Source of the DNA: an uncultured archaeon
Lineage (GTDB): Archaea > Asgardarchaeota > Lokiarchaeia > Sigyniarchaeales > SOKP01
Assembly (NCBI GenBank): GCA_964447495.1
Contig: CAYUTF010000064.1
Location: forward strand, 1 to 19,127
Direction: 5' to 3'
DNA length: 19,127 bases
A program made the position numbers and the translations under genes. Of the stretch, positions 1-18,147 are shown one piece after another. Within the stretch, counting starts at the first letter, position 1. The number at the start of each line of letters is the position of its first letter. Below the pieces are notes generated by a model, which saw only the letters and a list, made by a program, of their open reading frames with translations, was not told where the DNA came from and made no database searches.

Positions 1-470
1 TTATCATCTAATTCTTTTTTAAGCATTTGTTGAGTTGTCCCTGTATCTTTACCCCATAGATTATTAGCATCCCTTATTTGTATATCATCATCTTTTATCC
101 ATAGATAAACTGGATCTTTTGCTTTACCTTCAATAATAATTCCATCATATCCCGCATGCTTTAATTCCGCGCCCCAATACCCTCCTACTTCAGATTCTCC
201 AAACCCGCCCGTTAATGGAGATTTTGCGCCAACAGCATTTCTACCAGATCCTGGAATATGAGTTCCTGTCAAAGGTCCCGTTGCGAATATCAAATGATTT
301 TTAGGACTCAACGCTTCGATTCCGGGGTCAATTTCTTTTAAAAGATAGTATGAAATAAATCCTTGACCTCCAATATATCTACGGAGAAAAAGATCATCTA
401 AGGGTTCAATTTTAGAAGTTTCATTACTAAGGTTTATCCTGAGTATTTTTCCAGCATAACCAAAATCCAT
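1..470 (-). CDS. aor: Tungsten-dependent aldehyde:ferredoxin oxidoreductase family protein, N-terminal part (runs off the left edge)
   Basis: Not in the ORF track. Manual translation from ATG at 470 gives MDFGYAGKILRINLS...YIGGQG...LIFATGPLTGTHIPGSGR...KSPLTGGFGESEVGGYWGAELKHAGYDGIIIEGKAKDPVYLWI, the typical AOR N-terminal domain. The frame is open to the window edge. Confidence 0.93.
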   Translation of the reverse strand, partial: MDFGYAGKILRINLSNETSKIEPLDDLFLRRYIGGQGFISYYLLKEIDPGIEALSPKNHLIFATGPLTGTHIPGSGRNAVGAKSPLTGGFGESEVGGYWGAELKHAGYDGIIIEGKAKDPVYLWIKDDDIQIRDANNLWGKDTGTTQQMLKKELDD

Positions 471-610
471 GTTTTACTCACATTATTTAGAAATTGTCTA
501 AGTATCCATTTTATTTTAATACTAAATAATAAAACTTCCTTTAAATTATAGGTTATATTCTAAAACTTTATCAAAAGTTTATTGATACTATAAAGTCATC
601 TATAATGATA

Positions 611-1780
611 TTAGAATTCGAATTTTTTGAAGGCTGAAATCACTTTTTCGATATCGTTTTCGTTATTATAATAATTAAAAGAAAATCGTAAAAGTGTATT
701 TTTAGTAGCATTAGGATATCTTTTTAAAGTTACATAAATGTTATTTTTAACAAGAAAGTCATAGATTTTATCTGCTTTCTCATGTTCAAGGGTAATTATA
801 CCCGATCTGAATTCCTTTTCTAAAGGGGTAATGATTGTAACATTAAAATCCTTTATCTTTTCAATAAATGAATCTGTTAATGAGATGATTCTCGCTTGGA
901 TAGAACTAATTCCTTTTTTGATATTACCTCCGCCGATTTGTTCTTTTATCAAATCAAAACTTCCTTTCAATGCGAGAAGTGCGCCGTAATTTGGACATCC
1001 TCCAAATGTATCCATATATCGTGGATAATTTATCACTTTCACATTATCATTATCCATCGAAAAGGGATCGTTAACACTTAACCATCCAGTAAAAGGAATT
1101 TCCTTTTCTTTGAAGAATTTTTGATTAATATATAATATTCCCGCGCCATAACCACAACCAACCCATTTGAGGGTATTACTCACCATAATGTCGATATTAT
1201 CTTCTTTAACATCGATCTCGAATGCTCCAAACGATTGTGTTGTGTTTATTATACTTATTATATGATTTTTTTGACAGAAAATACCTAATTTTCCTAAATC
1301 TTGTCGAAATCCCGTTAAAGATTGCACATGGCTATGAATTAAGATTTTAGTATTTATAGATTTTGCTTCACTGATATTATTTAGAAGGAATTTATTATTG
1401 GTATGTGTAATTTTTATGCCGGGAAAACCAAGCTTTTTAAAGATATGCACCGATGCGGGAAATTCAATCGATGGGTATATAAATTCCCCTTTTTCTAATA
1501 TACGTGCTACTACGTTCATACATGAAGATACATTAGGAAGAAAAGCTATTTCTTCTGGTTTTGCATTGATATATCTTGCTATTATTTCTCGATTTAAATC
1601 AACATCTTCCTTAAATTTTTCATAATACATATCTCCATGTTCAAGCATGGTTTTTAAATAATGTAATCCTCCTTCATATGCTTTAAAATTCATAGGAGAA
1701 GCTGAAGCTGCCATAATATAAGTATGCGAATTAAGCGCGGGGAAAAAGTCCCTCCTAATCTGGTCCCAATCAACTGCCAT
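611..1780 (-). CDS. Class V aminotransferase-fold PLP enzyme (cysteine desulfurase/selenocysteine lyase superfamily, probable C-S lyase)
   Basis: IRRDFFP N-terminus, EEIAFLPNVS, EFPAS, SHVQSLTGFRQDL, SNTLKW (PLP Lys205), RSGII and LRFSFNYYNNENDI motifs. No NifS/SufS catalytic Cys loop. Confidence 0.85.
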   Translation of the reverse strand: MAVDWDQIRRDFFPALNSHTYIMAASASPMNFKAYEGGLHYLKTMLEHGDMYYEKFKEDVDLNREIIARYINAKPEEIAFLPNVSSCMNVVARILEKGEFIYPSIEFPASVHIFKKLGFPGIKITHTNNKFLLNNISEAKSINTKILIHSHVQSLTGFRQDLGKLGIFCQKNHIISIINTTQSFGAFEIDVKEDNIDIMVSNTLKWVGCGYGAGILYINQKFFKEKEIPFTGWLSVNDPFSMDNDNVKVINYPRYMDTFGGCPNYGALLALKGSFDLIKEQIGGGNIKKGISSIQARIISLTDSFIEKIKDFNVTIITPLEKEFRSGIITLEHEKADKIYDFLVKNNIYVTLKRYPNATKNTLLRFSFNYYNNENDIEKVISAFKKFEF

Positions 1781-1942
1781 AATTTTTTATTAACTTGCTT
1801 TATTTAATTAAAAATCTATTGGAGTATTATTTCATTCTACTAAGCATATATTTATGAAATATAATCTGAAATTTTTTGATTATACTATCTTTAGTTAATA
1901 ATTAAATATGTTTTTATTAAAAAAAAGGGTACACATATTAGT

Positions 1943-2788
1943 ATGGAAATCGATGATTTTCTTAAATGTTTGAGTTGTAGTAAAAGATTAGGCGCAAAAT
2001 CTGAAAATACAGCTAGTGAATGCGCAGAATGTATATTAAAATTAGATTTTAAAACACATGACCTTGATCAAAATCAAATTGATACGGATTTACAGAGTAT
2101 ATTAGATTTCTTTGTTTCTGATGTAAACGCGGCTTTTAAAAAAGATCCTGCAGCTCGTTCTCTTATAGAAATTTTAACTAGTTACCCGGGTATAAAGGCA
2201 GTTTTATTGTATCGAATTGCTCACTTCTTTTGGAGATTGCATATGCCCTATATCCCCCGCTATATTTCAGACATTGCACGAGAGTTAACTGCTATCGATA
2301 TCCATCCAGGAGCTGTTATTGGGAGTGATTTTTTCATAGATCATGGTGCAGGAGTAGTAATTGGAGAGACTGCGGAAATTGGTAATAATTGCACTTTCTA
2401 TTCTGGCGTAGTCCTTGGAGGAACCAGCTTAAACAGGGGAAAAAGGCATCCTACCTTAGGTGATAACGTAGTTGCAGGAAGTGGTGCAAAAATATTGGGA
2501 CCAGTTGCGATTGGCGATAATGTGAGAATCGGAGCAAATTCTGTGGTAATTAATGATGTCCCGCCTAATTGTGTTGTTGTAGGAGTTCCAGGTAAAATAG
2601 TTGAAAAAGTCCATGAGAAAGTTCAGAAAATAGATTTAAGACATGGTGATTTGCCAGATCCTATTTCCATGGCGGTCTCTAGCCTGGACAAGAGAATCCG
2701 AGAGTTGGAAAAGCATTTTTTAAAAGATTCTGAAAAGAAGCAAGAAGATATAGAGATCTTTTATGGTGAATATGGAGGTGGAATTTAA
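1943..2788 (+). CDS. cysE: Serine O-acetyltransferase
   Basis: DPAARS, YPG, IDIHPGAVIG, FFIDHGAGVVIGETAEIG and KRHPTLGDNV hexapeptide-repeat motifs. C-terminal EYGGGI. Adjacent to cysK. Confidence 0.97.
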   Translation: MEIDDFLKCLSCSKRLGAKSENTASECAECILKLDFKTHDLDQNQIDTDLQSILDFFVSDVNAAFKKDPAARSLIEILTSYPGIKAVLLYRIAHFFWRLHMPYIPRYISDIARELTAIDIHPGAVIGSDFFIDHGAGVVIGETAEIGNNCTFYSGVVLGGTSLNRGKRHPTLGDNVVAGSGAKILGPVAIGDNVRIGANSVVINDVPPNCVVVGVPGKIVEKVHEKVQKIDLRHGDLPDPISMAVSSLDKRIRELEKHFLKDSEKKQEDIEIFYGEYGGGI

Positions 2789-2822
2789 AGAATGTTCAAG
2801 AAGGTTAAAATAGGTGGATTAG

Positions 2823-3752
2823 ATGGTTAATTATTATAATAGTATAATAGATACAATAGGAAAAACTCCTTTAGTAAAATTAAATCGGATTACAAAAGGA
2901 TTAAAGCCAAATATATTTGGAAAAATAGAATATTTCAATCCTGGGGGCAGTATTAAGGACAGAATAGGAATGAACATGATCCTATCCGCAGAAGAAGAAG
3001 GTATGATTAATTTGAATAGTACTATTGTTGAACCAACTTCTGGGAATACTGGGATAGGTTTAGCATTAGTCTGTGCTTCAAAAGGTTATAAATTGATATT
3101 GGTAATGCCTGAAGGAGTTTCTATTGAAAGGGTTCAAATTCTAAAAGCTTATGGGGCAGAAGTGCTACTTACCCCCAATGAAGGAGGAATGAAAGCTGCG
3201 ATTAAAAAAGCCGAAGAACTTGCGGAAAAAGATGACAATATTTTTATTCCACAACAATTTAAAAACAAGGCTAATCCTGATATCCATAGAAGAACTACAG
3301 CAAAAGAAATATTTAATGACTTAGATGGTCGAATAGATGCATTTATTGCGGGAGTGGGTACTGGTGGTACGATCACTGGTGTTGGTGAAGTTTTAAAAGA
3401 TCGAGTGGGATCTAGATTAAAAGTGTACGCTGTTGAACCCAAGGATTCACCTGTATTATCAGGAGGTTCTCCTGGACCACACAAACTTCAAGGAATTGGC
3501 GCAGGATTTATTCCTGAAATACTCAATACCGCGATTTATGATCAAGTTATTCAAGTGACATATCAAGACGCAATAAATACTGCTAGGAAATTAGCAAAAC
3601 AAGAAGGGATATTTGCAGGGATAAGTACTGGAGCAATAGCATGGGCCACTTTAAACGTTGTTGCTAAAAAATTTGATGTGGATGAGAATCTAGTTTTTAT
3701 TGTATGTGACACTGGAGAGCGATATTTATCAACAGAACTCTATACTTTTTAA
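2823..3752 (+). CDS. cysK: Cysteine synthase A (O-acetylserine sulfhydrylase)
   Basis: IGKTPLV, NPGGSIKDR (PLP Lys), EPTSGNTG, GVGTGGT, PGPHKLQGIGAGFIP and DTGERYLST motifs. Confidence 0.97.
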   Translation: MVNYYNSIIDTIGKTPLVKLNRITKGLKPNIFGKIEYFNPGGSIKDRIGMNMILSAEEEGMINLNSTIVEPTSGNTGIGLALVCASKGYKLILVMPEGVSIERVQILKAYGAEVLLTPNEGGMKAAIKKAEELAEKDDNIFIPQQFKNKANPDIHRRTTAKEIFNDLDGRIDAFIAGVGTGGTITGVGEVLKDRVGSRLKVYAVEPKDSPVLSGGSPGPHKLQGIGAGFIPEILNTAIYDQVIQVTYQDAINTARKLAKQEGIFAGISTGAIAWATLNVVAKKFDVDENLVFIVCDTGERYLSTELYTF

Positions 3753-3756
3753 GAAA

Positions 3757-4674
3757 TTATTTAAGAACAGTTACTTTTGATTTTAAAATTTTATAAACCG
3801 TATTCCAATTATCCTTTAAGTCCCATTTACCTTTCTCTTTAATAATTTTCGATAGCATATAAAAGAGTTTTTTGATTTCCAAGGAATGGAAGAAATTGAT
3901 CTTTGGTGCTAATATAGCTATCATATATTGTTTTTCACCAAATCGCTCCCCTTGATCGGGATATGAATCAAAGAGTAAATATGCATCTGTTTTTAAATTT
4001 TTTAAATTTAACAATATATCTTCTGATTTAGTTATTTTACCATGCCCATATATGGGTAAAGAGGCTGAGAATAATTGATTAACAAGATCATCAATTGAAA
4101 TTGCTATTTGTTTATTTGGAGGATAAAAATCGATAACTTTAGGTCCGTATCTGTCATCCCAGAAAGCAATTAAAATGTAGAGCGCTCTATTTGCATTTTC
4201 ATTTAAAGGGGATACCAACTCAGAACCAATTGGTGCAATTATTTTTTCCAATTCATTATTTAGTAATTTTGACCTATTTATTCTTGCAATTTTACCAGAA
4301 ATCACCGCTAATAGATCTTTCTCTTCAAATGGTTTTGTAATATAATCATCGGCACCTAATAATTTACCCAATCTAATATCCTTTTGGGAGCTCTTAGCAG
4401 AAAGAAAGATAAATGGAATGCTATTCCATCGGGGGTCAATTGATATCTCTTTAAAGAATTCATATCCATCTAACTCAGGCATCATTATATCACTTATAAT
4501 AATATCTGGAAGGTGATCTAACTTAGAAAGTAATTTTAATGCTTCTTTTCCATTTTTTGCAGTTAAAACATTATATTTATTACTTTTTAATATCAGTTCA
4601 ATATTAAATAATAAATCCGTATTATCTTCGACAACAAGAATCTCTGCTTGCATATTTAAATCATTATTTTTCAT
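3757..4674 (-). CDS. Response regulator: N-terminal REC domain fused to a longin/uDENN-like C-terminal domain
   Basis: The REC domain is intact (VVED16-17, phosphoacceptor D62 in SDIMMP, S92, K114-P115). Residues ~164-305 begin LYILIAFWDDRYGPKVIDFYP, the longin/uDENN beta1-beta2 signature. REC is high confidence; the output-domain call is an inference. Confidence 0.9.
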   Translation of the reverse strand: MKNNDLNMQAEILVVEDNTDLLFNIELILKSNKYNVLTAKNGKEALKLLSKLDHLPDIIISDIMMPELDGYEFFKEISIDPRWNSIPFIFLSAKSSQKDIRLGKLLGADDYITKPFEEKDLLAVISGKIARINRSKLLNNELEKIIAPIGSELVSPLNENANRALYILIAFWDDRYGPKVIDFYPPNKQIAISIDDLVNQLFSASLPIYGHGKITKSEDILLNLKNLKTDAYLLFDSYPDQGERFGEKQYMIAILAPKINFFHSLEIKKLFYMLSKIIKEKGKWDLKDNWNTVYKILKSKVTVLK

Positions 4675-4715
4675 TTTGTCGATTGCCTATACATATTATT
4701 CTATACATATAATAT

Positions 4716-7301
4716 TTATAAACTTTTGATTCTGGGGATGAAAATATAAAAAGTTGTACCTTTCATTAATTCACTTTCAACATACACAGAACCTTTATGA
4801 AGTTCGATTAATTCTTTTGCAATACTCAATCCAAGTCCTGTTCCAGGGATATCACTTACTTTATCAGATCTAAAGAACCGTTCAAATAAATGGTTTAAAT
4901 CGTCTTTTGAAACTCCAATCCCATGATCTTGAATTTTAAATAAAATACCATCTAATCCTTCTTCATTATAAATACCCTTATACTGATCAATTGTCTCAAT
5001 TTCTATTATACTATTTTTTGCTGAATATTTTATCGCATTATCTATAAATATACGAAATATTTGATCTAACCGTTTAGCATCGGCATAAAGGATGAGATTA
5101 GGATCAATTTTTACATTAAAAGTTATATTTTTCATATTACCAATAGGTTCCATGAGAACTAGGATTTCCTGGATAAGATCGTAAGGTTTCAATTCTTTCC
5201 ATTCTAAAACTATTTTTCGGTCATCAATCCGCGAAAGCATTAAGATATCATCCACTAAATCTTTTAGTAGATGAATATTCTTTGTCATTCCTTCTTTTAA
5301 TTTCTTTTCTATATCCTGCGTTACTTTCTCAGCGTGATTTTCTAGAAAATCGATTGAAGTTACCAGAACCGAAATAGGATTGCGTAGTTCATGAGAAACG
5401 GTCGATACAAATCTTTCTAATCGTCGTTTCGCTTTTAATCGTTCAGTAATATTTAAACCATATATATTTACATATCGTTTTTTTTCATTCAATATAAAGA
5501 AAAAAGTATAAAACTCATTTTTTATGTGTAATTCCGCTTCATTATTTTGTAGTTCTAAAAAGCACTGCTTAATTGGTTCTCTTAATAGTTCAGGAAGCAG
5601 ACTAGCCTCTCCAATATTAAAAAGCTCTTGACTTGCATTATTAGCTAATAAAACGTACTTTTCGTTTACTCTTAAAACGGGATTAGGGTTTTCTAAAGGA
5701 AATCTTGCCATATCTTCTATTTTTTCTTCCGCTCTTTTCCTTTCAGTGATGTCTCTACATATTGATTGGAAATATTTCTTTCCTGAGAGCTCCATGATAT
5801 TTGTTAATACACTGACATCCTTTATTTCTCCAGTTTTAGTTTTAAATTTTGTTTCAAATGTATCACTGCCCTCTCTCAATATTTTATTAATATGCATTCT
5901 TGTCTCAGCGGCAGATTCGTTTATGTCATAATCATTTACGTTTAATTTCGAAAATTCTTCCCTTGTATATCCCAACATTTTGCATATTGCATTATTGAAC
6001 TCATAAGCTTTTGCAGTATCAGGGTCAAAGATGATAATACCGTCGGGTGATTGTTCAAAAGTAGTACGATAACGATATTCTGATATCTCAAGCTTTTCTT
6101 GAGCCTCTCTGCGTTGGGTAATATCTGTAAAATTCTGTATTATTCCTAGAAAATCACCTCTAACGTTTAAATACGGAACAGAGTGTACAATAAATACTCG
6201 TTTTTTATTAGTATCTAATGCTTGCTCCGCAACGTACTCATAATTTCTTGTTCCAGAAAGTACTTGCTTCATAGAACACATTTCAGAGTTACAATAACTT
6301 ACTGGAGAGCAATCATAACATTTCTTTCCAAGGATGTCTTCTCTTTTTATATTGAATAAAGCACAATATGTATCATTTACTCTAATTATATTGCATTCCT
6401 TATCGATGATACGAAGGGGCAGAGAGGCTTCAAAAATTTGATTAAAATCGACATTTACAATTTCAAGTTCAGCAGCTTTTTTTGTTAACTCATTTTCATT
6501 TAACTTTATCTTTCTAAAAAGTGAATTGTATGGTTCTTTTATGCCAATTTTAATTATCGCTTTGTAGATATGATAAAATGCGATAATCTTGAAAAGATGT
6601 CCAACTAAATTAGCTAACCCATAGACATCAGTATAAAGCGTAAATGCTAGTTCTGAAAAAATCATAAAAATAATAGAAATAATGATAAAAGTAAAAACCT
6701 TTCGATCAAATTCGTTCCTTAGCTTATACATCCAAATAAATGAGATGATAAAAATTGAATCAATAACATATTCACTAATTATTTTGAACGGAGTTAACTG
6801 TTCAATTTCCTCAATATAACATATAGGAAATAAACCTTGAAATATCAAAGTAAGAAATAGCGTTACAAGAATAATTTGTGCAACAGTTAAATAGTAAAAG
6901 TTAACTTTCTTATTGAATAAAATTAAAGCCACCACAAAAGAAATTGATTGCCAATATCTTGCCAAAATCCATAAAGAGGTGGGTAAATTTGAATCAAAAC
7001 CAACAAATATATTCAACCCTGTATACGCCAAGGTATGAATTAAATCGATAACAGCAATGAATAAAAATGATAATCCCACCACCAAATAAAAGGAATTTTT
7101 GATGTATATTCTTGAATTCCATCCGACAACAAAAATGCCCACACTTATAATAATGGCAGAAAGTTCAGCTATGGTATGAAATAATAAATAATTGTATAAG
7201 CTTGAGAGATACATCAAGAATAATAGTCCACTTAAAATAAGATATTCAATAATGCCAAACCTCATATATGAGGATTGATCTATATTTGGACGATTAAACA
7301 T
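4716..7301 (-). CDS. Membrane sensor histidine kinase (MASE3-PAS-PAS-degenerate PAS-HisKA-HATPase)
   Basis: Multi-TM N-terminus with MASE3-type motifs (YLLFHTIAE, IDLIHTLAY, WILAR, LVGHLFK). Two PAS/PAC units ending DITQRR and DITERK. H-box VSHELRNP (H637), N-box DNAIKY, G1 DHGIG, F-box LFERFFR, G2 GTGLGL. Confidence 0.95.
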   Translation of the reverse strand: MFNRPNIDQSSYMRFGIIEYLILSGLLFLMYLSSLYNYLLFHTIAELSAIIISVGIFVVGWNSRIYIKNSFYLVVGLSFLFIAVIDLIHTLAYTGLNIFVGFDSNLPTSLWILARYWQSISFVVALILFNKKVNFYYLTVAQIILVTLFLTLIFQGLFPICYIEEIEQLTPFKIISEYVIDSIFIISFIWMYKLRNEFDRKVFTFIIISIIFMIFSELAFTLYTDVYGLANLVGHLFKIIAFYHIYKAIIKIGIKEPYNSLFRKIKLNENELTKKAAELEIVNVDFNQIFEASLPLRIIDKECNIIRVNDTYCALFNIKREDILGKKCYDCSPVSYCNSEMCSMKQVLSGTRNYEYVAEQALDTNKKRVFIVHSVPYLNVRGDFLGIIQNFTDITQRREAQEKLEISEYRYRTTFEQSPDGIIIFDPDTAKAYEFNNAICKMLGYTREEFSKLNVNDYDINESAAETRMHINKILREGSDTFETKFKTKTGEIKDVSVLTNIMELSGKKYFQSICRDITERKRAEEKIEDMARFPLENPNPVLRVNEKYVLLANNASQELFNIGEASLLPELLREPIKQCFLELQNNEAELHIKNEFYTFFFILNEKKRYVNIYGLNITERLKAKRRLERFVSTVSHELRNPISVLVTSIDFLENHAEKVTQDIEKKLKEGMTKNIHLLKDLVDDILMLSRIDDRKIVLEWKELKPYDLIQEILVLMEPIGNMKNITFNVKIDPNLILYADAKRLDQIFRIFIDNAIKYSAKNSIIEIETIDQYKGIYNEEGLDGILFKIQDHGIGVSKDDLNHLFERFFRSDKVSDIPGTGLGLSIAKELIELHKGSVYVESELMKGTTFYIFIPRIKSL

Positions 7302-7359
7302 GATTTGTTATTAATTTTTCCATTCAATTCAACATTCTTCATAAAAATAGTGTATATTG

Positions 7360-7908
7360 TTAATTAATGTTTGTTTTTTGGAATATAGTAAAAATACACG
7401 TCTTAGCAAGTTCATAATTAAAATTTAAAGGGAGTGCTTCTTTAATTTGTTTGATGTATTCCTCCGCTTCTTTTGAATCAAAATTGCTATTTACAGTGTC
7501 AATATCAGGGTCATATTTATGTAAAAATATTGAGAAATCAACATTTTGATTGCTTTTTTGTAATAAGTCAACTACTTCTACTAAATATTGTAATGCCAAA
7601 CTATATCTAGCAGTATCTTGGATATCAATTACAAAAATAATTTTATTAGTCCCTACAATATTTTTTTTAAAATCAATTGAATAATCTTTTCGAAATTGCT
7701 CCTGCCCTCCGAAATCCCAGACATTAAATTCGGATCCAAAGACAGTAAAGATTTCTCTTTTTATCCCTCTTGTCGGATTTAAAGAATAAAATGACATTAA
7801 ATTCTTTATTCCTTTCAAACATAAAACAATGGAAGTTTTACCACTCTTATCTAAACCCATGATAAGAATCTTTTTTATATTGTTTACATTAGATATGTCC
7901 TTTTCCAT
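7360..7908 (-). CDS. Small Ras-superfamily GTPase, Arf/Rag(Gtr)-like
   Basis: G1 GLDKSGKTS, G2 PTRG, G3 WDFGGQ, G4 HKYD, G5-like TCIF. Stand-alone 182-aa G domain. Confidence 0.93.
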   Translation of the reverse strand: MEKDISNVNNIKKILIMGLDKSGKTSIVLCLKGIKNLMSFYSLNPTRGIKREIFTVFGSEFNVWDFGGQEQFRKDYSIDFKKNIVGTNKIIFVIDIQDTARYSLALQYLVEVVDLLQKSNQNVDFSIFLHKYDPDIDTVNSNFDSKEAEEYIKQIKEALPLNFNYELAKTCIFTIFQKTNIN

Positions 7909-7956
7909 GTATATGACCTAACTCCGTGATAATTTATTCAGCAATTTTATGAAATT

Positions 7957-8292
7957 TTATGGTAGAACATCTTTTACATCTGAATCTATAAAATCTACTA
8001 ACTTTTCCTTATTTTTCTTGATTACAAAAGAATTTATCTGCGAAAGAAAATTGGAGGTATCCAAATCTTTGATATTATAACAATTCTCCTTGTCTTTTTT
8101 CTCAAAGATAATTAAATTATTACTTAGTAGAATTTTCAGGTGTTGAGAGATAGTGGATTGCGATTTTTGCAAAATATTTTGAAGATCATTAGATGTTCTT
8201 CCCTCTTTTTGTAATAAGAACAATATATCTAATCGAGTTTGATCTGAAAGTGCTTTCAAAAAATCGCTGATATAACTATTAATGTCGCTCAT
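7957..8292 (-). CDS. ArsR/SmtB family transcriptional regulator
   Basis: FLKALSDQTRLDIL and SQSTISQHLKIL winged-HTH motifs. Confidence 0.92.
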   Translation of the reverse strand: MSDINSYISDFLKALSDQTRLDILFLLQKEGRTSNDLQNILQKSQSTISQHLKILLSNNLIIFEKKDKENCYNIKDLDTSNFLSQINSFVIKKNKEKLVDFIDSDVKDVLP

Positions 8293-8558
8293 AAATGATG
8301 TTCAATTTTTTCTAATATTATATATGGTTATACCGTTATAAATCAATATTATTTATAAAATGGAAATTTTTGATTATTAAAGATTTGTCTAATTAATTAT
8401 AGATAATCTATTTTTTCGCTAAAAGAGACGTGTTCTTATTAAATTGTGAATGAACATTCGCTATATGAAAATATTTAAATATCGGCATATCGTTAATAAT
8501 GAATAATGAAATATAATATTCCAATAAGATATTATTACAAAATTTAAAGGTTATAACC

Positions 8559-9074
8559 ATGGAAAGTAAAGTCTTTGAAATTGATGAGATTGATAAAAAT
8601 ATTATTGAACTAATTCAGAAGGAACCCACCCTTACTCATACTGAAATAGCAAAGAGAGTTAATAGAAGCCAACCAACAATCGGTATGAGAATTCGGAAAC
8701 TTGAAGATTCGGGGGTTTTAAAATTTCAAGCAGGAATTAATGTAAAAACAATGGATCTTATTCTTGCTCGGGTAGAAATTCAAACTTTAAACCCAAAAGA
8801 AATCATTGAATTAGTAAAAAAATGTCCTTATATGTTAAACGCTTTTCGATTAAGCGGAGATTCAAATGTTAGTGTTTTTATAGCAAGCACTAAATTAGAA
8901 CATCTTGATAATATTATTAATTGTCACTTTAGGAAAAATCCAAATGTTTCAAATGTATATATGAATATTGTAACTGACGTGGTAAAAGATTTCGTTTTGC
9001 CATTTGATTTTGATTTTGGCAAGTGTGAAAATACAACAGGTGGATTCTGTTGTGGTAAATGTATTAAAGAATAA
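8559..9074 (+). CDS. Lrp/AsnC family transcriptional regulator with Cys-rich C-terminal tail
   Basis: IDEIDKNIIELIQ...THTEIAKRVNRSQPTIGMRIRKLEDSGVL HTH, a RAM-like domain (FRLSGDSNV) and tail CENTTGGFCCGKC. Confidence 0.93.
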   Translation: MESKVFEIDEIDKNIIELIQKEPTLTHTEIAKRVNRSQPTIGMRIRKLEDSGVLKFQAGINVKTMDLILARVEIQTLNPKEIIELVKKCPYMLNAFRLSGDSNVSVFIASTKLEHLDNIINCHFRKNPNVSNVYMNIVTDVVKDFVLPFDFDFGKCENTTGGFCCGKCIKE

Positions 9075-9101
9075 TTTTTTTATATATTCTTTTCTCTTTT
9101 T
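9075..9101 (+). terminator. Probable archaeal oligo-T terminator after the Lrp gene
   Basis: TTTTTTT directly after the stop, followed by TTCTTTTCTCTTTTT. Confidence 0.5.
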
Positions 9102-9275
9102 AATGAATCTCTATTTGAATATTATTAGATTTAAGATCTTCAATACTGTAAAAATGGATTAGTTAGATACATATAGATCAAGTTTTTAGGTAATCAAAAA
9201 TTATGAAACAAAGTTATAAATCTTACAACATAAAAGTAGATCATCAACATGTATCATAAAATTTCTTACACTATG

Positions 9276-9291
9276 AATAAACTTTTATTAT
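9276..9291 (+). promoter_or_regulatory. Candidate BRE/TATA promoter for the tRNA-Cys (and possibly cysS) transcript
   Basis: AATAAACTTTTATTAT about 75-90 nt upstream of the tRNA and about 20 nt upstream of a hairpin. The AT-rich background limits certainty. Confidence 0.4.
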
Positions 9292-9364
9292 GTTCAATAT
9301 ATACATGTCATTGAGCAGAGTATGCCTTTAGAAGCATAAATCTGCTGAATTGGTCTATATCAAT

Positions 9365-9465
9365 GCCAGTATATCCGAGGTTAGATCTCAAACAAATCTG
9401 ACGGTAATAGTTAAGGAGGCGGCCTGCAGAGCCGTTATTCAAGGGTGCAAATCCCTTTACTGGCT
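9365..9465 (+). tRNA. tRNA-Cys(GCA) with a predicted 28-nt intron (9380-9407) in the D-loop
   Basis: Acceptor GCCAGTA/TACTGGC, discriminator U73 (Cys identity), D-stem TCC/GGA, anticodon arm GCGGC-CTGCAGA-GCCGT (GCA at 9426-9428), variable TATTC, T-arm AAGGG-TGCAAAT-CCCTT. It is 101 nt unspliced and 73 nt after intron removal. It lies 25 nt upstream of cysS. Confidence 0.92.
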
Positions 9466-9490
9466 TTTAAAGCCGATCAAGTGATAAATA

Positions 9491-10933
9491 ATGCAGATAT
9501 ACAATAGTTTAACATTTCAGAAGGAAGAATTTAGGTCCATTGATCCAATGGAAGTTAAAATTTATTGGTGTGGTCCCACAGTCTATGAAAGTCCGCATTT
9601 GGGACATATGAAGTCCGCTATAGCTTTAGATATCATTCATAGGTATTTTAAGTATAAGAATTTAAAGGTAATAGTTGTTAAGAATTACACAGATATCGAT
9701 GATAAAATAATTAAGCGTTCTAAGGAATTAAACTTAGATTATCAGACCATTAGCAAAAAATATATCAAAGAGTACGAAGATATGATGAACGTTTTAAATA
9801 TTTTAAAAGATACGAAAAATCCGAAAGCAACGGAAGTGATTCCTTTTATAATCAATTTTATCAAGAAACTCATTCAAGATAATCATGCATATGAGCAAGG
9901 AGGTTCAGTCTATTTTTCAGTTAAAAGCTTTCCACGATATGACTCAATTATGCAAAATGTTAAAGATAAAGATGCTGATGAAGATGATGACTATTCGACC
10001 GATCAAGATACTGCATACGGTGAAGATAAACATGATTCTCGAGATTTTGCGCTCTGGAAAAAAATGAAAGAAGGAGAACCTTATTGGGAAAGCCCCTGGG
10101 GGAAAGGAAGGCCAGGGTGGCATATTGAATGCTCAGCAATGGTTCTGAATTTGCTTGGGGAGACTATAGATATTCACGGAGGAGGACAAGATTTAAAATT
10201 TCCCCATCATAGAAATGAAATTGCTCAATCAGAATCATATTCAGGTAAACCTTTTGCTCATTACTTTATCCATAACGGGTTTATAAATGTGAACGATGAG
10301 AAAATGTCAAAAAGTCTAGGGAATTATTTTCTTATCTCTGAAATTCTTAAAGAATATGATCCTATGGTAATTAGATGGTTCTTACTCTCAAGCCATTATC
10401 GAAGTTCTATAAATTACTCTTTAGAAAATATGGAGCAATCTAAAAAGACATACAATAGACTTATAAACACAATTAAACAAGTTCATGATATAAAACCATC
10501 TTCTAAAGGTTCTAAAGAAAGTGAAGAATTAATTACAGAGATTTCAAAAGCGAGAACTTACATTATAAAAGCATTAGACAATGATTTTGATACACCTAAA
10601 GCTATCGCAGAGTTATTAACTTTATTTAGACAAATAAATAGGACGTTTCTCCAAGAAGCTAAACCAATAAATCAGAAGTTTAAGGATAGCTTCTTTCAAT
10701 TTATTGATGATATTGAAGCTATATTCGGTATATTTCCTAATATAGATTTCATAATGTCCCAATTATCAGCTATTTCTATTGGCGAAGATGAAAATTTAAT
10801 AAAAGCATTAATAGAGTTACTACAAAACACAAGAGAGCAACTTCGTAAAAAGAAAATATTTGATCTAAGTGATACAATTAGGGATAAGCTGCGAGAACTT
10901 GGTATAGATATTGAAGATAACAAAATCAAGTAA
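9491..10933 (+). CDS. cysS: Cysteine--tRNA ligase
   Basis: WCGPTVY, HLGH (HIGH), NYTDIDDKII, DFALWK, GRPGWHIECSAM, DIHGGGQDLKFPHHRNE, KMSKSLGN and SDTIRDKL motifs. Confidence 0.98.
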   Translation: MQIYNSLTFQKEEFRSIDPMEVKIYWCGPTVYESPHLGHMKSAIALDIIHRYFKYKNLKVIVVKNYTDIDDKIIKRSKELNLDYQTISKKYIKEYEDMMNVLNILKDTKNPKATEVIPFIINFIKKLIQDNHAYEQGGSVYFSVKSFPRYDSIMQNVKDKDADEDDDYSTDQDTAYGEDKHDSRDFALWKKMKEGEPYWESPWGKGRPGWHIECSAMVLNLLGETIDIHGGGQDLKFPHHRNEIAQSESYSGKPFAHYFIHNGFINVNDEKMSKSLGNYFLISEILKEYDPMVIRWFLLSSHYRSSINYSLENMEQSKKTYNRLINTIKQVHDIKPSSKGSKESEELITEISKARTYIIKALDNDFDTPKAIAELLTLFRQINRTFLQEAKPINQKFKDSFFQFIDDIEAIFGIFPNIDFIMSQLSAISIGEDENLIKALIELLQNTREQLRKKKIFDLSDTIRDKLRELGIDIEDNKIK

Positions 10934-10969
10934 CATATCCCCTTTTTGTAATAAAAATTAGGAGAAGAA

Positions 10970-11782
10970 TTGATTTACATGAAATTTAATAATAAGAAAC
11001 CTACCATCCTCATCCTTTCTCCTCATATTGATGATATTGAATTTGGAGTTCCCTTCTTCTATATACGATCCTTGAGCTTGGGATATAATGTTATTGAGGT
11101 TATAATGACCAATAGCGAATTTGGAACCCATGAAATTGAATTTAAAGGAGCCAGATTAAGTAAAATTAGATTTCATGAGTTAATGAAGGTTAATCAGTTA
11201 TTTACTACATATACAACTAATGTTCCTGAGTTAATTAGATTAAATTATATCGATGGTCATCTTCCAGTAGATATAAAGGCAATAGATCGAATCTCTGCTA
11301 TAATCAGAGATAAAAAGCCAGATATTATCCTTGCTCCAGACCCGTGGTATACTCTTGACCCTCATCCGGATCATCTCAATACCGGTAAAATTCTTTTTTT
11401 TGCTCTAAGAAATGTCGAACAAAATATCTTACCAAAGAAGATTTATTATTTCTATACCTTTAATTCGAATTCTCATTTTAAAGTGCACTGGAAAGATAAA
11501 ACTATCCTATTCAAAGCATACCTTCTATTCAAAAGCCAAATTACTCCACTAGAAATAAACTACTTAAAAATAGTGTATTTATTTTTACTTTTTAGAAGGA
11601 TTTTTAAGTTTGGAGGTTTTACAGAAAACTTTAGACAGCAAACAATATCAAATGACAAATCTGATTTCCCGAAGAAACTCAATTTACTCCAGAGAGTTAA
11701 ATATCACTTTTTTAGTATAAGATCAATCCCAAATATTCAAAAATTTCACAATCTTACACCAAAAGAGATTGGTATAGAATAA
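10970..11782 (+). CDS. PIG-L/LmbE family zinc-dependent deacetylase
   Basis: SPHIDD and HPDH metal-binding motifs, RFHE, YIDG, IRDKKPDIILAPDP. The start may be ATG 10979 rather than TTG 10970. Substrate unknown. Confidence 0.88.
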   Translation: MIYMKFNNKKPTILILSPHIDDIEFGVPFFYIRSLSLGYNVIEVIMTNSEFGTHEIEFKGARLSKIRFHELMKVNQLFTTYTTNVPELIRLNYIDGHLPVDIKAIDRISAIIRDKKPDIILAPDPWYTLDPHPDHLNTGKILFFALRNVEQNILPKKIYYFYTFNSNSHFKVHWKDKTILFKAYLLFKSQITPLEINYLKIVYLFLLFRRIFKFGGFTENFRQQTISNDKSDFPKKLNLLQRVKYHFFSIRSIPNIQKFHNLTPKEIGIE

Positions 11783-11783
11783 A

Positions 11784-12191
11784 TTAAAGTGGTGCTTCAC
11801 TACTTATTAGATTTTCATCATCATCTTCAAAGCGCTTATAATGCTTAAATAAAATTGGTGCAAGTTGAATCTCGTTTGTTGTCGAGACGGTAAGTACCTG
11901 ATCTTCTCCTGCATGTAATATTAACAAATATCCCTTTTTACCCTTGACATAAGCTTGTTCAAAATCACCTAAACCCATCTCAGTAATAGCTCTTTCACTT
12001 AGAGAACATAAAGCAGCAGTGACAGCAGCAAAACGCATTTCATCTACACTAGAAGGTAAAACAGAGGCAAGTGCTTGACCCGTATCAGCAGATATTTGAG
12101 CTGCTTTAATTCCTTTCACATCATCCATTACATTTTTAAGCAGTTCTTCGAGTGAAGACTTAAACTCCCTTTTTTCTTTTAAAATTCGCAT
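11784..12191 (-). CDS. Roadblock/LC7 (MglB/LAMTOR-like) domain protein
   Basis: VKGIKAAQISADTGQALASVLP, RFAAVTAALCSLSERAITEMGLGDFEQAYVKGKKGYLLI: the classic roadblock pattern. Confidence 0.92.
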   Translation of the reverse strand: MRILKEKREFKSSLEELLKNVMDDVKGIKAAQISADTGQALASVLPSSVDEMRFAAVTAALCSLSERAITEMGLGDFEQAYVKGKKGYLLILHAGEDQVLTVSTTNEIQLAPILFKHYKRFEDDDENLISSEAPL

Positions 12192-12561
12192 GATATTAGA
12201 TAAATTTTGATGATGAAAAGCTTAATCCATAAAAAAGAGACTTTAAAATTTAAAGTTTGGCATCAATTTGAAAATAAGATGCGGATAGAAGATACATGAT
12301 GGGAAAGCAGGTTTGGAAGTAGATTTGGCGGCTTATCAATCTCAACGTACACAAAATACTATTCATTTACTTTTAGAATAAATCAATGCGATTCATAGGA
12401 AAAACTAACCTTAAATAATGTTATTTCAAGCATTTTTGTAATTTTAATTTCAGTCAATTGCCTAATGTCTAAGCATAAGTATTTAAAAATCTACAAATCA
12501 ATATTCTATATTAGCTATAAATCTAAGATAGTTAAATTACATATAAATAGGTGAAAAAAAT

Positions 12562-13386
12562 ATGTCTAAACCACAATTTGAACATATTAAAATTGAGGAA
12601 AAAAAAGATAATTATTATGTCATTATCTCAATAAACAGGCCGGATAAACTAAATGCTCTTGCAACGGATACATTAAGTGAAATTGCGAATGCTCTTGAGA
12701 ATATGGTCTTAAATAAATCTATTAGGTGTGTCATTTTAAGAGGAACAAAAGACTTTACAAAAAAGCCAGCATTTTCTGCTGGAGCTGACTTATCTACTCG
12801 TGGTCATCCAGATATTGATCCTAAGAACTTAATGGATCAAAGCCATGCTATGTATATAAGACATAAGTATTATGACATAATAGAGCGATTTCCAAAGCCA
12901 ATCATCGCTGCCGTAGATGGATATGCACTAGGTGGAGGTTTTGAGTTAGTGCTAGTTTGTGATATTATTATTGCTTCAAGACGCTCAATATTTGGTTTCC
13001 CTGAAATTAATAGAGGGATAGCCCCTTTTAATGGAGGAACCCAGAGGTTAATACGAAATATCGGTAAGATAAGAGTTAAGAGAATGATTTTTTTTGGTGA
13101 GCATTATACCGCCGAAGAGATGTATAATTGGGGGCTAATCTCGTTTCTCGTTAATGATGATGATTTTGAAGAATTTGTTCATGAAAAAGCATCCTGGATT
13201 GGCAACGCACCAACCAAAAGTCTGTTTGTCATTAAAAAAGCTATCGATTATGGAACCCAGGCGCCATTAAATTTGGGACTTCAGTTCGAGCAACTAGGAT
13301 ATGCCATCAATTCTCAATCAAAGGATGCAAAAGAAGGTGTAACGGCTTTCTTAGAAAAGAGAAAACCCCAATTCACTGGAGATTAA
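12562..13386 (+). CDS. Enoyl-CoA hydratase/isomerase (crotonase) family protein
   Basis: NRPDKLNAL, AFSAGADL, KPIIAAVDGYALGGGFEL, FGFPE, GGTQRL and EGVTAFLEKRKPQF. Both catalytic Glu are present. Confidence 0.95.
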   Translation: MSKPQFEHIKIEEKKDNYYVIISINRPDKLNALATDTLSEIANALENMVLNKSIRCVILRGTKDFTKKPAFSAGADLSTRGHPDIDPKNLMDQSHAMYIRHKYYDIIERFPKPIIAAVDGYALGGGFELVLVCDIIIASRRSIFGFPEINRGIAPFNGGTQRLIRNIGKIRVKRMIFFGEHYTAEEMYNWGLISFLVNDDDFEEFVHEKASWIGNAPTKSLFVIKKAIDYGTQAPLNLGLQFEQLGYAINSQSKDAKEGVTAFLEKRKPQFTGD

Positions 13387-13522
13387 CCTTAAGTTCTTTT
13401 TTACTATTTTAAAGTAATGAACACGTGTTTGAGTGAATATCAATTGTTCAAAGGATTAGATTCAAAATAAGGATTTGCGTTCCTAACTCAATATATTATT
13501 TAAAAAAAGAAGTATAAAAAAA

Positions 13523-15244
13523 TTAGGCTCCATTAACCAATTTCACTTTAGGAGCGTAAACTTCTTGGACTTGGTAATTATTAAAGTTAATACTATAGTG
13601 ATCTCTCCAATGGGCTTTCACTTCGTATAGCATAGCTTCCATATCACTGTCTTTAACTTTACCTTTTGTCTGTAATAATGTCCCCATTGGTGATGCTATG
13701 ATTTCTCCATCTTTCACTACAATTTGACCATCTTTTATGGTATAAGCTGCTAGGGTAAACGCTTTTTCAATAGCTTCGCCATCCATCTTCTCGGGATTTA
13801 AATTATATATCGCAACATCTCCAATCGCACCAACCCCTAGATGACCTCGATCTTTCATTCCTAAACACTTTGCAGTCCCAGCTCGCGTAACAATGCATAG
13901 ATCATTTATGGTAAACTCATAATCAATATCCTTCAGATGTGTTTGCGTAACTGCTTTTTGAGAGCATTGATTGAGTAATAAATCATCTCGCGTCTTCTTA
14001 TCCATTAACCAGCGGAACGCTTTTGGATAAGCTGTAAAAGGACCGCCATTTGGGTGATCAGTCGTAAAGAATATTTGATATTTATTTTTAGTTAATAGTA
14101 ATAATTCAAGTCCTATAGCCCATTGAATCGCGTTTACCGCTACTTTTGGACTAAAGAAATATGGGACAATGCCCGAACCTGATTCGCCTTCTACTTGCCC
14201 ATTTACCCATTTCATTCCTGGTTTTGCGCCCCAGCTGCTCATTCCTCCAAGATGATGGAGTGCAAATTCCCATGGGCCATCTGCCGTCATTGTAGTGGTT
14301 GCTGCTTTTCCAAAAATAACTTGTCCAACGTCAGTAGTGATATGCTTATGTGAATTTAAATATTCAGCTATTTTAGATGCTCCCGACTCAAAATTATTCC
14401 AGTTGCTTCCCCCATAAGCATTAAATTGCATATGAGTAATATGCATGATTGAATCCCTGTCAGCTTGGGGTTTTATTTTTGCTACGGTCTCCATTGAAGC
14501 GAGAGTATGCTCTACATTTCCAGGATGGCCTAAATTATTACAATGAACGTGAATAGTATGTGGTAATCCTATTTTTTCGTTCGCAGTCGCTAATCCTTCT
14601 AATATCTCACGTGGTGTTACATCAAAATGAAGAACATGGTCATCAAGAGAATCCACGTTCTTTCCCCAAGCCCAATTCTCGACTCCTCCCGGATTCACGA
14701 TTTTAACAGCGTAACCTTTTGTAACATCCATTACCCATGAGATATAAGCTGCCAATTTATCATATTCTTGATCCTTTATGAATCGCATGACAAACCAATT
14801 ATTTCCAAGGAGAGGAAATGCCGCTTTATCAATGATAGGCATCTCATTGAACTCTTCATGGGTATGTCGCGCTTCTAACAAAGGTAAGGCGGGTTCCACT
14901 ACAGTGGTATATCCTAATCTTGCATATCGATACCCTGTCACCCAAGTTGAGGGAACAGAGTATCCTGTACCAGAGCGAGATACTTTGGTTTTCTTTTCAT
15001 TGTACTCTGGAAGTTTATCTTCGGGTCGAAATGCTCGTCCTGTGTTCACTTTTGCGCCAGCGATATGCGAATGAATATCAACACCCCCTGGCATAACAAT
15101 CATGCCAGACGCATCAATAATCTTTGCATCACCATTCACTTTATCAACTACTTTCCCATCTTTGATATGAATTTCCTTTTTTTCGCCATCTAAATTATTG
15201 AGAGGATCGTAAACTAACCCATTTTTTATTATTATATCTTTCAT
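13523..15244 (-). CDS. fwdA: Formylmethanofuran dehydrogenase subunit A
   Basis: MPGGVDIHSHIAG, GYRYARLGYTT, KIVNPGG, HVHCNNLGHPGN, TMTADGP, TTDHPNGGPF and GHLGVGAIGDVAIY motifs; 573 aa. Confidence 0.96.
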   Translation of the reverse strand: MKDIIIKNGLVYDPLNNLDGEKKEIHIKDGKVVDKVNGDAKIIDASGMIVMPGGVDIHSHIAGAKVNTGRAFRPEDKLPEYNEKKTKVSRSGTGYSVPSTWVTGYRYARLGYTTVVEPALPLLEARHTHEEFNEMPIIDKAAFPLLGNNWFVMRFIKDQEYDKLAAYISWVMDVTKGYAVKIVNPGGVENWAWGKNVDSLDDHVLHFDVTPREILEGLATANEKIGLPHTIHVHCNNLGHPGNVEHTLASMETVAKIKPQADRDSIMHITHMQFNAYGGSNWNNFESGASKIAEYLNSHKHITTDVGQVIFGKAATTTMTADGPWEFALHHLGGMSSWGAKPGMKWVNGQVEGESGSGIVPYFFSPKVAVNAIQWAIGLELLLLTKNKYQIFFTTDHPNGGPFTAYPKAFRWLMDKKTRDDLLLNQCSQKAVTQTHLKDIDYEFTINDLCIVTRAGTAKCLGMKDRGHLGVGAIGDVAIYNLNPEKMDGEAIEKAFTLAAYTIKDGQIVVKDGEIIASPMGTLLQTKGKVKDSDMEAMLYEVKAHWRDHYSINFNNYQVQEVYAPKVKLVNGA

Positions 15245-15507
15245 TGTAAATTTCCTTGATTATAGGTATATTTTTGATTTTTCTACAAATACTAATTCTT
15301 AGTACTTATTCTAATACTTGTAAAAATCTATTATTTTTATAAAGATTTATTATTATTTTTAGGTTTAGATAGGATTAAGATTATAAATATTAAAAAATTG
15401 CTTTTATAAGAATCAGAGTTATTTTATATGATATAATGATAATTGGAATGATTTCTTAACATATAGTGTAAAATTTAACATTATTATCTAAAAGGAAAGA
15501 ATATATC

Positions 15508-16647: not shown

Positions 16648-16824
16648 AATATTTTTTTATTCTTTTTTTTAAAAAAACAAGTTTCTATGTATAAATATAG
16701 TAATATAGTTATAATGAAAGATATAGAAAGATAGATATAATATTATAAAGAAAGAAAAATAATGTTACGATAATTATTTATCTAAATATAACTATTAATG
16801 ATTTTAAATTAAAGGTGTTAAATT

Positions 16825-17322: not shown

Positions 17323-17356
17323 ATTAAAAAATTAAACTATTTTATTTTTTTTTAAT

Positions 17357-18028: not shown

Positions 18029-18147
18029 ACAGCTTTTCCTTTATTTTATTAATATTCTATTACACCAATTATTAAAAAATATAAATCATTTAAATTAATT
18101 GCAGTTAAAGTAGATAATGAAATTATCTCTCTAAAACCGACAATATT

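Follow-up and report, generated by a model that had tools for sequence, protein, structure and literature searches.

A four-gene cluster in a Lokiarchaeial genome

We analyzed a stretch of DNA from an uncultured archaeon of the Lokiarchaeia (Asgardarchaeota; assembly GCA_964447495.1, contig CAYUTF010000064.1, positions 1 to 19,127). We call this whole stretch of 19,127 nucleotides the window. Our subject is a cluster of four genes on its minus strand, which encode an ArsR-type regulator, a small GTPase, a membrane sensor kinase, and a response regulator that ends in an output domain resembling the longin domains of folliculin and C9orf72. The GTPase and longin genes stay together across related genomes, and we propose that the response regulator controls the GTPase. 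(The source genome is 3.81 Mb and 98% complete. In a protein search, the relatives of the window's proteins are labeled Promethearchaeota, Lokiarchaeota, or Hermodarchaeota in the public records.)

The four open reading frames (ORFs) run head to tail at 7957-8292, 7360-7908, 4716-7301, and 3757-4674, with spacers of 48, 58, and 41 bp. An earlier interpretation from the letters alone (the sequence-only reading) had described four co-oriented genes with these gaps, and our ORF listing recovered the same ORFs and gaps. It had also named an ArsR regulator, an Arf/Rag-like GTPase, a kinase with MASE3 and PAS domains, and a receiver (REC) protein, and Pfam agrees for each of them.

The first gene (7957-8292) encodes an ArsR/SmtB-family winged-helix regulator of 111 amino acids (Pfam HTH_5, E = 6.1e-13; NCBIfam HTH_metalloreg, 63.3 bits versus a cut-off of 55) with a single cysteine in the whole sequence. 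Next comes a Gtr1/RagA-like small GTPase of 182 amino acids (7360-7908), which consists of a G domain only and matches both Gtr1_RagA and Arf in Pfam. The third gene (4716-7301) encodes a membrane sensor histidine kinase of 861 amino acids, with the Pfam domains MASE3 (residues 34-257, nt 6531-7202; E = 2e-74), PAS_4, PAS_9, HisKA (E = 1.9e-11), and HATPase_c (E = 1.6e-25). The last gene (3757-4674) encodes the response regulator of 305 amino acids. Its REC domain is at residues 12-125 (nt 4300-4641; Pfam Response_reg, E = 5.2e-26), and profile comparisons place a folliculin/C9orf72-type longin-like output domain at residues 164-301 (nt 3772-4185). A long helical linker leads from one to the other (residues about 120-147). 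We refer to this protein as REC-longin.

The kinase and the receiver have the parts of a two-component pair: a histidine and an ATPase domain on one side, an acidic pocket with an aspartate and a lysine on the other, and genes that are 41 bp apart. His637 of the kinase lies in a SHELRNP box (nt 5391-5393), and the N and G boxes are present as well. In the receiver pocket, E16, D17, the phospho-acceptor D62 (nt 4489-4491), S92, Y111, and K114 are conserved in at least 90% of an alignment of 52 sequences (A1). H637 and D62 are where the sequence-only reading had placed them. The first PAS domain of the kinase also has a cluster of cysteines (C328, C331, C337, and C342, within residues 328-342; window positions 6276-6320). 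All 7 kinase orthologues with alignments at E of 1e-5 or better keep three of these (C328, C337, and C342), and the cluster may be a redox- or metal-sensing site.

The output domain resembles the longins of folliculin and C9orf72

Residues 135-305 of the response regulator have no match in Pfam. With the C-terminal 166 residues as the query against 5.8 billion proteins, we obtained 152 matches, nearly all of them about 298 amino acids long with a receiver in front. Against 1.84 billion cluster representatives, a profile gave 292 matches at E up to 0.001. (A search of a protein atlas with a stored homologue, P0074, returned only an unnamed archaeal cluster with a score of 0.75, which is under the level of a lead.)

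Since the output domain's own profile matched neither the Pfam threshold nor the PDB, we bridged through a related set. Proteins that pass the Pfam Folliculin cut-off (PF11704) are found in 32 of 201 Asgard genomes, and 15 of these proteins form the bridge set A3. When we aligned a profile of 30 output domains (A2) to A3 with hhalign, the probability was 95.9% (E = 6.3e-9, 128 columns). The alignment places WDDxxGP of the output domains on FDExxGP of A3, and their conserved arginine on the invariant arginine of A-R-G-G. As controls, A2 scored 0.3% against the profile of the linked GTPases and 0.3% against a profile of 13 Roadblock proteins from the same genome (A6), and A3 scored 0.1% against Roadblock.

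The top PDB match of the A3 profile is human folliculin (6ULG_L, E = 8.9e-4), with the conserved arginine on residue 164 of the 579-residue chain. We take R164 to be the catalytic arginine of folliculin. For a merged profile (A5), the top PDB match is human C9orf72 (6LT0_C, E = 1.1e-3) across residues 30-158, which is the entire longin domain. In this alignment, W-D-x3-G-P falls on F-A-Y-W-D-N-I-L-G-P of C9orf72 (W33-D34 and G38-P39) with the same spacing. In A2, hydrophobic strands and helices also follow one another in a way that is compatible with the longin fold (beta-beta-alpha-beta-beta-beta-alpha). Together these profile tests support the identification of the output domain as a longin of the folliculin/C9orf72 type, and the longin-like domain that the sequence-only reading had proposed is borne out by them.

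In the window's protein, the motifs are W172-D173 (nt 4156-4161), G177-P178 (nt 4141-4146), and R244 (nt 3943-3945), a candidate arginine finger. Within A2, the W and G of the W-D-D-x-x-G-P loop are invariant and the P is kept in at least 90% of the domains. The arginine, in the motif D-S-Y-P-D-x-x-x-R-x-G, is present in 24 of the 30, and R244 is invariant in A1. (The match of R244 to folliculin R164 takes two steps, through the invariant arginine of A3.) According to excerpts of PMC12290439, W33-D34 of C9orf72 is essential, and the GP motif is specific to those longins that are GTPase-activating proteins (GAPs) and absent from those that are guanine nucleotide exchange factors (GEFs). REC-longin stops at residue 305, right after the longin domain, so it has no DENN module, and there is no second longin gene within the cluster.

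Some side results concern this domain. P0224 reaches 17.7 bits against a Folliculin cut-off of 23.3; the remaining Pfam matches among the 30 domains of A2 are scattered singles; and a PF11704 search of the source genome did not match the REC-longin gene. The window's longin also has a long terminal branch (0.92 versus a median of 0.24) and only 52-55% identity to orthologues from the same genus (3757-4257).

The GTPase is a Rag-like G domain

The GTPase scores nearly equally with two Pfam families: Gtr1_RagA at 73.3 bits (E = 2.5e-20; cut-off 22) and Arf at 69.9 bits (E = 2.3e-19; also above its cut-off). We read the P-loop as GLDKSGKT (residues 18-25, nt 7834-7857), switch I at T46, then WDFGGQ (residues 64-69, nt 7702-7719) and HKYD (residues 130-133, nt 7510-7521). 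In 27 linked orthologues, G18, G23, K24, T46, W64, D65, G68, Q69, H130, K131, and D133 are invariant, and P134 is kept in at least 90%. These orthologues have GLDNxGKT, WDxGGQ, HKxD, and a K-T-x-I-Y-T end in common. We take HKxD in the G4 position, in place of NKxD, to be a Rag signature. The N-terminus (MEKD...) has no Gly2.

We then compared the GTPase profile to the PDB. The best matches, 8YL2_A (E = 3.1e-44) and 8ZLA_A (E = 7.7e-40), are both labeled "GTP-binding protein," and we found no paper that describes these two entries. They are followed by RagC, RagD, Gtr2, Gtr1, and RagA, which match across the full G domain (E of 1e-21 to 1e-19). Arl and Arf proteins are close behind, covering profile positions 8-148 only. 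We call the protein a Rag-like G domain, with Arf-like as a close alternative. The G domain fills all 182 amino acids, so the C-terminal roadblock domain is missing.

The source genome has 20 GTPase-like matches, and the GTPase of the cluster is the sole short copy. The 19 others are at most 41% identical to it, and 17 of these 19 are in ORFs of at least 294 amino acids. (Some of the matches form islands, with five on contig C45 and three on C46, at loci L151 and L152; these islands include an ORF of 232 residues that matches Folliculin weakly.)

The GTPase and REC-longin genes are linked across relatives

The longin domain is found in 50 of the 201 sampled genomes of the phylum, including 34 of the 40 from family f1 and all 10 from family f22. 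It matched at 77 places outside the source genome. For 40 of these, in 36 genomes, we retrieved the surrounding sequence (up to 20 kb) and mapped the window's proteins onto it. These loci are from the class of about 300 amino acids, with longer contigs and a spread of genera favored; short contigs, the class of about 650 amino acids (the longin-TPR type, such as P0268), and weak matches in ORFs of over 900 amino acids were left out. (A separate scan of a genome collection was dominated by the receiver. Only one of its 80 loci, L001, covers the longin part, and the others were not used.)

In 29 of the 40 loci, the distance from the REC-longin gene to a Rag-type GTPase is 3.4 kb or less, and Gtr1_RagA is the best Pfam family for every linked GTPase neighbor that we ran. 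Since a GTPase would be expected by chance in about 4% of 7-kb intervals (20 matches in 3.81 Mb), this arrangement is not due to chance. The full order of ArsR, GTPase, MASE3 kinase, and REC-longin on one strand is present in 20 of the 40 loci, with MASE3 and kinase-core parts kept between the GTPase and REC-longin genes. We measured the gaps in 18 of the 20 (leaving out two with no called MASE3 ORF), and all three gaps are 5-114 bp in 17 of them. In locus L111 (G159:C54), the kinase is split: a stretch of 1839 bp separates a 272-residue MASE3 ORF from the REC-longin gene, possibly owing to a frameshift or an assembly error.

In 9 further loci, the GTPase is still beside REC-longin after rearrangement or the loss of the kinase. 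Three of them retain ArsR, GTPase, and REC-longin but no kinase (L134, L136, and L137), and one has a convergent arrangement (L149). In another group, which we call group B (L125, L135, and L139), the GTPase is directly downstream of REC-longin by 106-177 bp and there is no ArsR gene. In family f22 (L129 and L133), multidomain Gtr1/RagA proteins are encoded near REC-longin. ArsR is the steadiest companion of the GTPase: the two genes adjoin each other in 20 of the 20 full loci, are still together in L134, L136, L137, and L149, and, with gaps of 12-43 bp, are the tightest pair. Conserved linkage in relatives was the check that the sequence-only reading had put forward, and the 20 full-order loci and the 9 rearranged ones bear it out.

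The two genes also share their history. In maximum-likelihood trees of 17 pairs, group B, which comes from two genera, is a clade with 100/100 support for the longins and for the GTPases alike, and four other clades agree between the trees. The distance matrices are correlated as well (Mantel r of 0.648, with 0 of 2000 permutations as high), to which shared species history contributes. Both searches covered 23 genomes of f1. The two genes occur together in 18 of these and are both absent from 4; 1 has only the longin, and none has only the GTPase. The four genomes with neither gene all belong to genus g4, which possibly reflects one loss. The genome with only the longin, at the threshold used, has a group-B GTPase next door.

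Linkage is associated with the arginine. Among longins with the arginine, 18 of 24 are linked to a GTPase, as compared to 1 of the 5-6 without it (Fisher p of 0.016-0.036, where the rows are related and the effect is overstated).

A few loci have a second longin near the first: L136 has a 105-residue fragment (4201-4449), and L137 has two REC-longin genes (4476-5354 and 9079-9951), one of them without the arginine. It is possible that these extra longins are partners in heterodimers.

Fusions join the longin to sensor domains and to GTPases

REC is the commonest N-terminal partner in the longin family. Other fusions are to PAS (P0144), GAF (P0262), RsbRD_N (P0133), DUF1638 (P0131), and, on the C-terminal side, TPR (P0268). 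There are also proteins with kinase, REC, and longin domains (P0145 and P0160) and a kinase-longin protein (P0247). Two fusions are to small GTPase domains, of the Arf type in P0176 and the Ras type in P0137, and a 470-residue protein of the source genome (L151) combines a Folliculin-like longin with a Gtr1/RagA GTPase. WD[DE]xxGP and the arginine are kept in every fusion protein that we read. Because the N-terminal partners vary and the GTPase fusions recur, we view the longin as a portable output module for sensor domains that has repeatedly been joined to small GTPases.

(In P0137, of 378 amino acids, the Ras-family domain is on a group-B-type longin. It has a degenerate P-loop, GDSGIGKE, and its G3 motif is NFSGEE, so it may be a pseudo-GTPase.)

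A proposed mechanism

The domain identities, the conservation of the motifs, the linkage, the co-duplication, and the fusions were all established by computation. Because the linkage is conserved and the output domain looks like a folliculin/C9orf72-type longin with the WD, GP, and arginine motifs, the best-supported reading is that a GAP, or else a GEF or adaptor, is switched via D62. We lean towards a more specific version, in which the cluster is a conserved module of Lokiarchaeia-type Asgard archaea and REC-longin is a phosphorylation-switched regulator, most probably a GAP, that acts on the neighboring Rag-like GTPase.

The steps would be as follows. The membrane-bound MASE3-PAS kinase would sense a signal, autophosphorylate on His637, and pass the phosphate to Asp62 of REC-longin. 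The longin domain would bind and act on the co-encoded GTPase as a GAP, with R244 as the arginine finger beside the WD/GP loop. Phosphorylation of the receiver would switch this activity on or off, plausibly by a change in dimerization through the long helix between the REC and longin domains. The ArsR-type protein might regulate the cluster itself (autoregulation) or relay its output downstream. We favor a GAP because the GP motif has been reported to be specific to GAPs, the arginine falls on folliculin R164, and the longins that lack the arginine mostly have no GTPase neighbor. Control by dimerization is suggested because of the long helical linker that joins REC to the longin.

Several observations weigh against this proposal. 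None of the 30 output domains passes the Pfam Folliculin cut-off (the best E value, in 2 of the 30, is 0.057), a PDB search with the A2 profile alone (E up to 10) gave no match, and the links to the PDB, which run via A3 or A5 only with E near 1e-3, are marginal. We infer the longin fold, and any interface with the GTPase, from sequence alone. The arginine is absent from 6 of the 30 family members. No Rag-type GTPase is nearby in 11 of the 40 loci (among these, L140 and L143 are cut by contig ends, L128 and L132 have only Arf-type genes, 4-8 kb off, and the genomes G180 and G141 have both genes but apart from each other). The spacer between the GTPase and the kinase contains a T5 run, and co-transcription across it is putative. 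The longin GAPs of eukaryotes work as heterodimers and include DENN modules, and eukaryotic Rag GTPases pair up by a C-terminal roadblock domain; this cluster has a single longin gene without a DENN module, and its GTPase is a bare G domain. And longin domains serve as platforms for GEFs more often than as GAPs.

This last point leads to the closest alternative, which is that REC-longin binds the GTPase but is no GAP. It might promote nucleotide exchange, act as a scaffold, or serve as a platform for effectors, and phosphorylation would control its recruitment instead of GTP hydrolysis. Most longin and roadblock proteins have such roles (DENN, Mon1-Ccz1, TRAPP, and Ragulator are examples). The linkage and the fusions show a functional tie without naming the activity, and the 6 of 30 family members that lack the arginine stay conserved. 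There is also a case in Myxococcus, where RomR-RomX, originally regarded as a GEF, is an effector in the current description (excerpts of PMC13408092). On the other hand, the GP motif, which is specific to GAPs according to the excerpts of PMC12290439, is invariant or nearly so, the arginine falls on folliculin R164, and the loss of the arginine tends to accompany the loss of the GTPase neighbor. We consider this alternative unlikely.

Information could also flow in reverse or in parallel: the GTPase and ArsR would be the core pair, and the kinase would have REC-longin as an additional output under separate control. The GTPase in its GTP-bound state might, for instance, control DNA binding by ArsR, or it might gate the kinase, as has been proposed for the conservons of actinobacteria. 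It is true that the ArsR and GTPase genes are the tightest pair and that neither the absence of the kinase (L134, L136, and L137) nor its inversion (L149) separates them, and excerpts of PMC4316618 propose the conservon GTPase as the output of a kinase without a response regulator. But group B keeps the GTPase beside REC-longin and has no ArsR, and the direct GTPase-longin fusions point to the longin and the GTPase as the conserved contact, so we rate this idea as quite improbable. Finally, the genes might be neighbors by descent only, in which case one lineage would simply have an ordinary two-component pair located next to a GTPase gene unrelated to it. Shared ancestry does explain part of the conservation, as all 20 of the full-order loci are from family f1, and the cysteine-related genes that flank the cluster are likewise syntenic in close relatives. 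Beyond the closest genera, however, those cysteine genes leave the synteny and the GTPase does not. The adjacency outlasts rearrangement and kinase loss, it is seen in f22 (L129 and L133) and in a separately duplicated pair, and gene fusions unite both types of domains. Descent alone is a very improbable explanation.

Comparison with known systems

The sequence-only reading knew of no described example of such a module. That was too strong, given the longin/two-component fusions of Liu et al. 2021, the conservons, and the links between MglA and response regulators, as far as these are described in the excerpts of the sources that we cite below. The cluster is not the unprecedented hybrid of prokaryotic input and eukaryotic output that had been supposed, and two-component input into small GTPases is not new.

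The closest precedent is from Liu et al. 2021 (preprint 10.1101/2020.10.19.343400). Excerpts of that study report NPRL2-like longins in Asgard archaea that are fused to two-component domains, and suggest that growth control in these organisms is still centered on two-component systems with "eukaryotic" regulators. As in our family, longins of the NPRL2/FLCN class are joined to REC, PAS, GAF, or kinase domains, and the two families are probably the same or overlapping. In the excerpts, the legend of their Fig 5c covers domain architectures only, and the operons that are named are for ESCRT and for LAMTOR1-like/Rab-like/DENN proteins, not ArsR-GTPase-kinase-REC-longin. We found no report of a conserved operon that pairs REC-longin with a specific Rag-type GTPase, and the figures or supplements of Liu et al. 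may list the family or its neighborhood.

Actinobacterial conservons are also operons with a membrane kinase, a protein of the roadblock/longin superfamily, and a small GTPase. Excerpts of PMC4316618 describe the genes as CvnA (kinase), CvnB (roadblock/MglB-like), CvnC, and CvnD (MglA-like GTPase). Thus conservons have an MglA-like GTPase and a Roadblock regulator but no response regulator, whereas the cluster has a Rag/Arf-like GTPase, a REC domain, and a regulator whose similarity to Roadblock is 0.3%. These differences exclude it from being a conservon. The Myxococcus system (MglA/MglB with RomR-RomX and Frz) is similar in that response regulators feed a small-GTPase switch that has a GAP from the roadblock superfamily (excerpts of PMC4316618, PMC9481161, and PMC13408092). 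There, however, the genes are not neighbors (excerpts of PMC4316618), REC and GAP are separate proteins, and the GTPase is from another family.

The GTPase itself can be compared with Asgard Rag-like GTPases (Tran et al. 2024, PMC10933270). It shares the WDxGGQ and HKxDP motifs with 8YL2_A and 8ZLA_A, its best sequence relatives of solved structure. The chains in 8YL2_A and 8ZLA_A have 342-385 amino acids with extra domains, versus 182 amino acids here.

In eukaryotes, the comparable systems are FLCN-FNIP (acting on RagC/D), NPRL2-NPRL3 in GATOR1 (RagA/B), and C9orf72-SMCR8 (Arf/Rab). The cluster is like them in having a longin that profiles can detect and a partner of the Rag/Gtr type, and also in the W-D-x3-G-P spacing of C9orf72 and the arginine at folliculin R164. 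It differs in that the longin is fused to a receiver and does not reach the Pfam Folliculin cut-off, and the GTPase lacks the C-terminal roadblock domain by which eukaryotic Rags dimerize. Also, C9orf72-SMCR8 and the FLCN complex split the WD loop and the arginine between two subunits, whereas REC-longin is a single polypeptide, and any dimer would be a homodimer with both the WD motif and the arginine finger. (We did not find a description of a WD loop and arginine in one polypeptide in the literature; supplements and figures may hold more.)

This raises the speculative idea, which we hold to be possible and somewhat doubtful, that the cluster preserves an ancestral state: a homodimeric longin GAP whose single polypeptide combines a WD/GP loop of the C9orf72 type with an arginine finger of the FLCN/SMCR8/NPRL2 type. 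Its target would be a bare Rag-type G domain, and His-Asp phosphotransfer would be its switch. If true, the axis of Rag GTPases and longin GAPs through which eukaryotes signal to mTORC1 started out in archaea, as the output arm of a two-component sensor. FLCN-FNIP, NPRL2-NPRL3, and SMCR8-C9orf72 would then have become heterodimers by duplication and division of labor.

Two recent sources help to place the cluster. Excerpts of PMC12290439 describe longins with the GP motif and an arginine finger in Asgard archaea, and ask if their partners are Arf-related or Rag/Gtr GTPases. Excerpts of PMC10933270 state that the partners of Asgard GTPases cannot be read from genomes, as the genes for GTPases and regulators are generally not in operons. 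Relative to these excerpts, the cluster fills a gap, by tying a GP/arginine longin to one small Rag-type GTPase. The tie rests on conserved order, co-duplication, and gene fusion, and Asp62 is an obvious handle for turning the regulator on or off. (In the literature, we did not find evidence for the co-duplication of longins and GTPases; supplements and figures may hold more.) It is rare that genome data allow an Asgard GTPase to be matched with a likely regulator, as they do here. The set of three proteins bears on whether an archaeal longin is a GAP and on how a GTPase switch of the eukaryotic type is wired to sensing of the prokaryotic type. The cluster may thus be a testable prokaryotic forerunner of the switch that controls Rag GTPases in eukaryotes.

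Flanking genes and other features of the window

In a metatranscriptome of sediment (run X1), two contigs of 151 nt are identical to 6931-7081 and 7093-7243. Both are within the kinase gene, and DNA carry-over is possible; X1 has no contigs from the cluster beyond these two.

Genes related to cysteine flank the cluster. These are a class-V aminotransferase (611-1780), a cysE-type hexapeptide acetyltransferase (1943-2788), a cysK-type PALP enzyme (2823-3752), and cysteinyl-tRNA synthetase (9491-10933). (The names cysE and cysK are our reading of the Pfam matches.) The 3' end of the cluster is 4 bp from the stop of the convergent cysK-like gene. We considered whether the cysteine genes (cysE, cysK, cysS, and the class-V aminotransferase) belong to the system and rejected this: only the closest relatives keep the synteny, and any of these genes is present in 17 of the 40 loci.

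A stand-alone Roadblock/LC7 gene (11784-12191; 135 amino acids; Robl_LC7, E = 5.6e-15) is 3.5 kb upstream, on the same strand as the cluster. It was also rejected as a member of the system, as it is kept nearby in just 2 of the 40 loci (L112 and L113). The source genome has 13 Roadblock matches. Further along, Pfam gave no match (E up to 1e-5) for the ORFs at 15508-16647 (379 amino acids) and 16825-17322 (165 amino acids).

On the other side of the ArsR gene, an AT-rich spacer of 266 bp (8293-8558) separates the cluster from a divergent regulator of the Lrp/AsnC family on the plus strand (8559-9074; 171 amino acids; Pfam HTH_24, HTH_AsnC-type, and AsnC_trans_reg). The spacer presumably holds the promoters of both the ArsR cluster and the Lrp/AsnC gene. 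We examined a palindrome in it (GGTTATAACC, at 8549-8558) and discarded it as no more than chance, with a match in 68 of 200 shuffles. The Lrp/AsnC gene is the opposite-strand neighbor of the ArsR gene in all 20 of the full loci. Several relatives have 2-4 extra Lrp paralogues close by (for example, L119, L120, L123, and L146). The Lrp/AsnC protein in the window has a cysteine-rich C-terminal tail, with C156, C164, C165, and C168.

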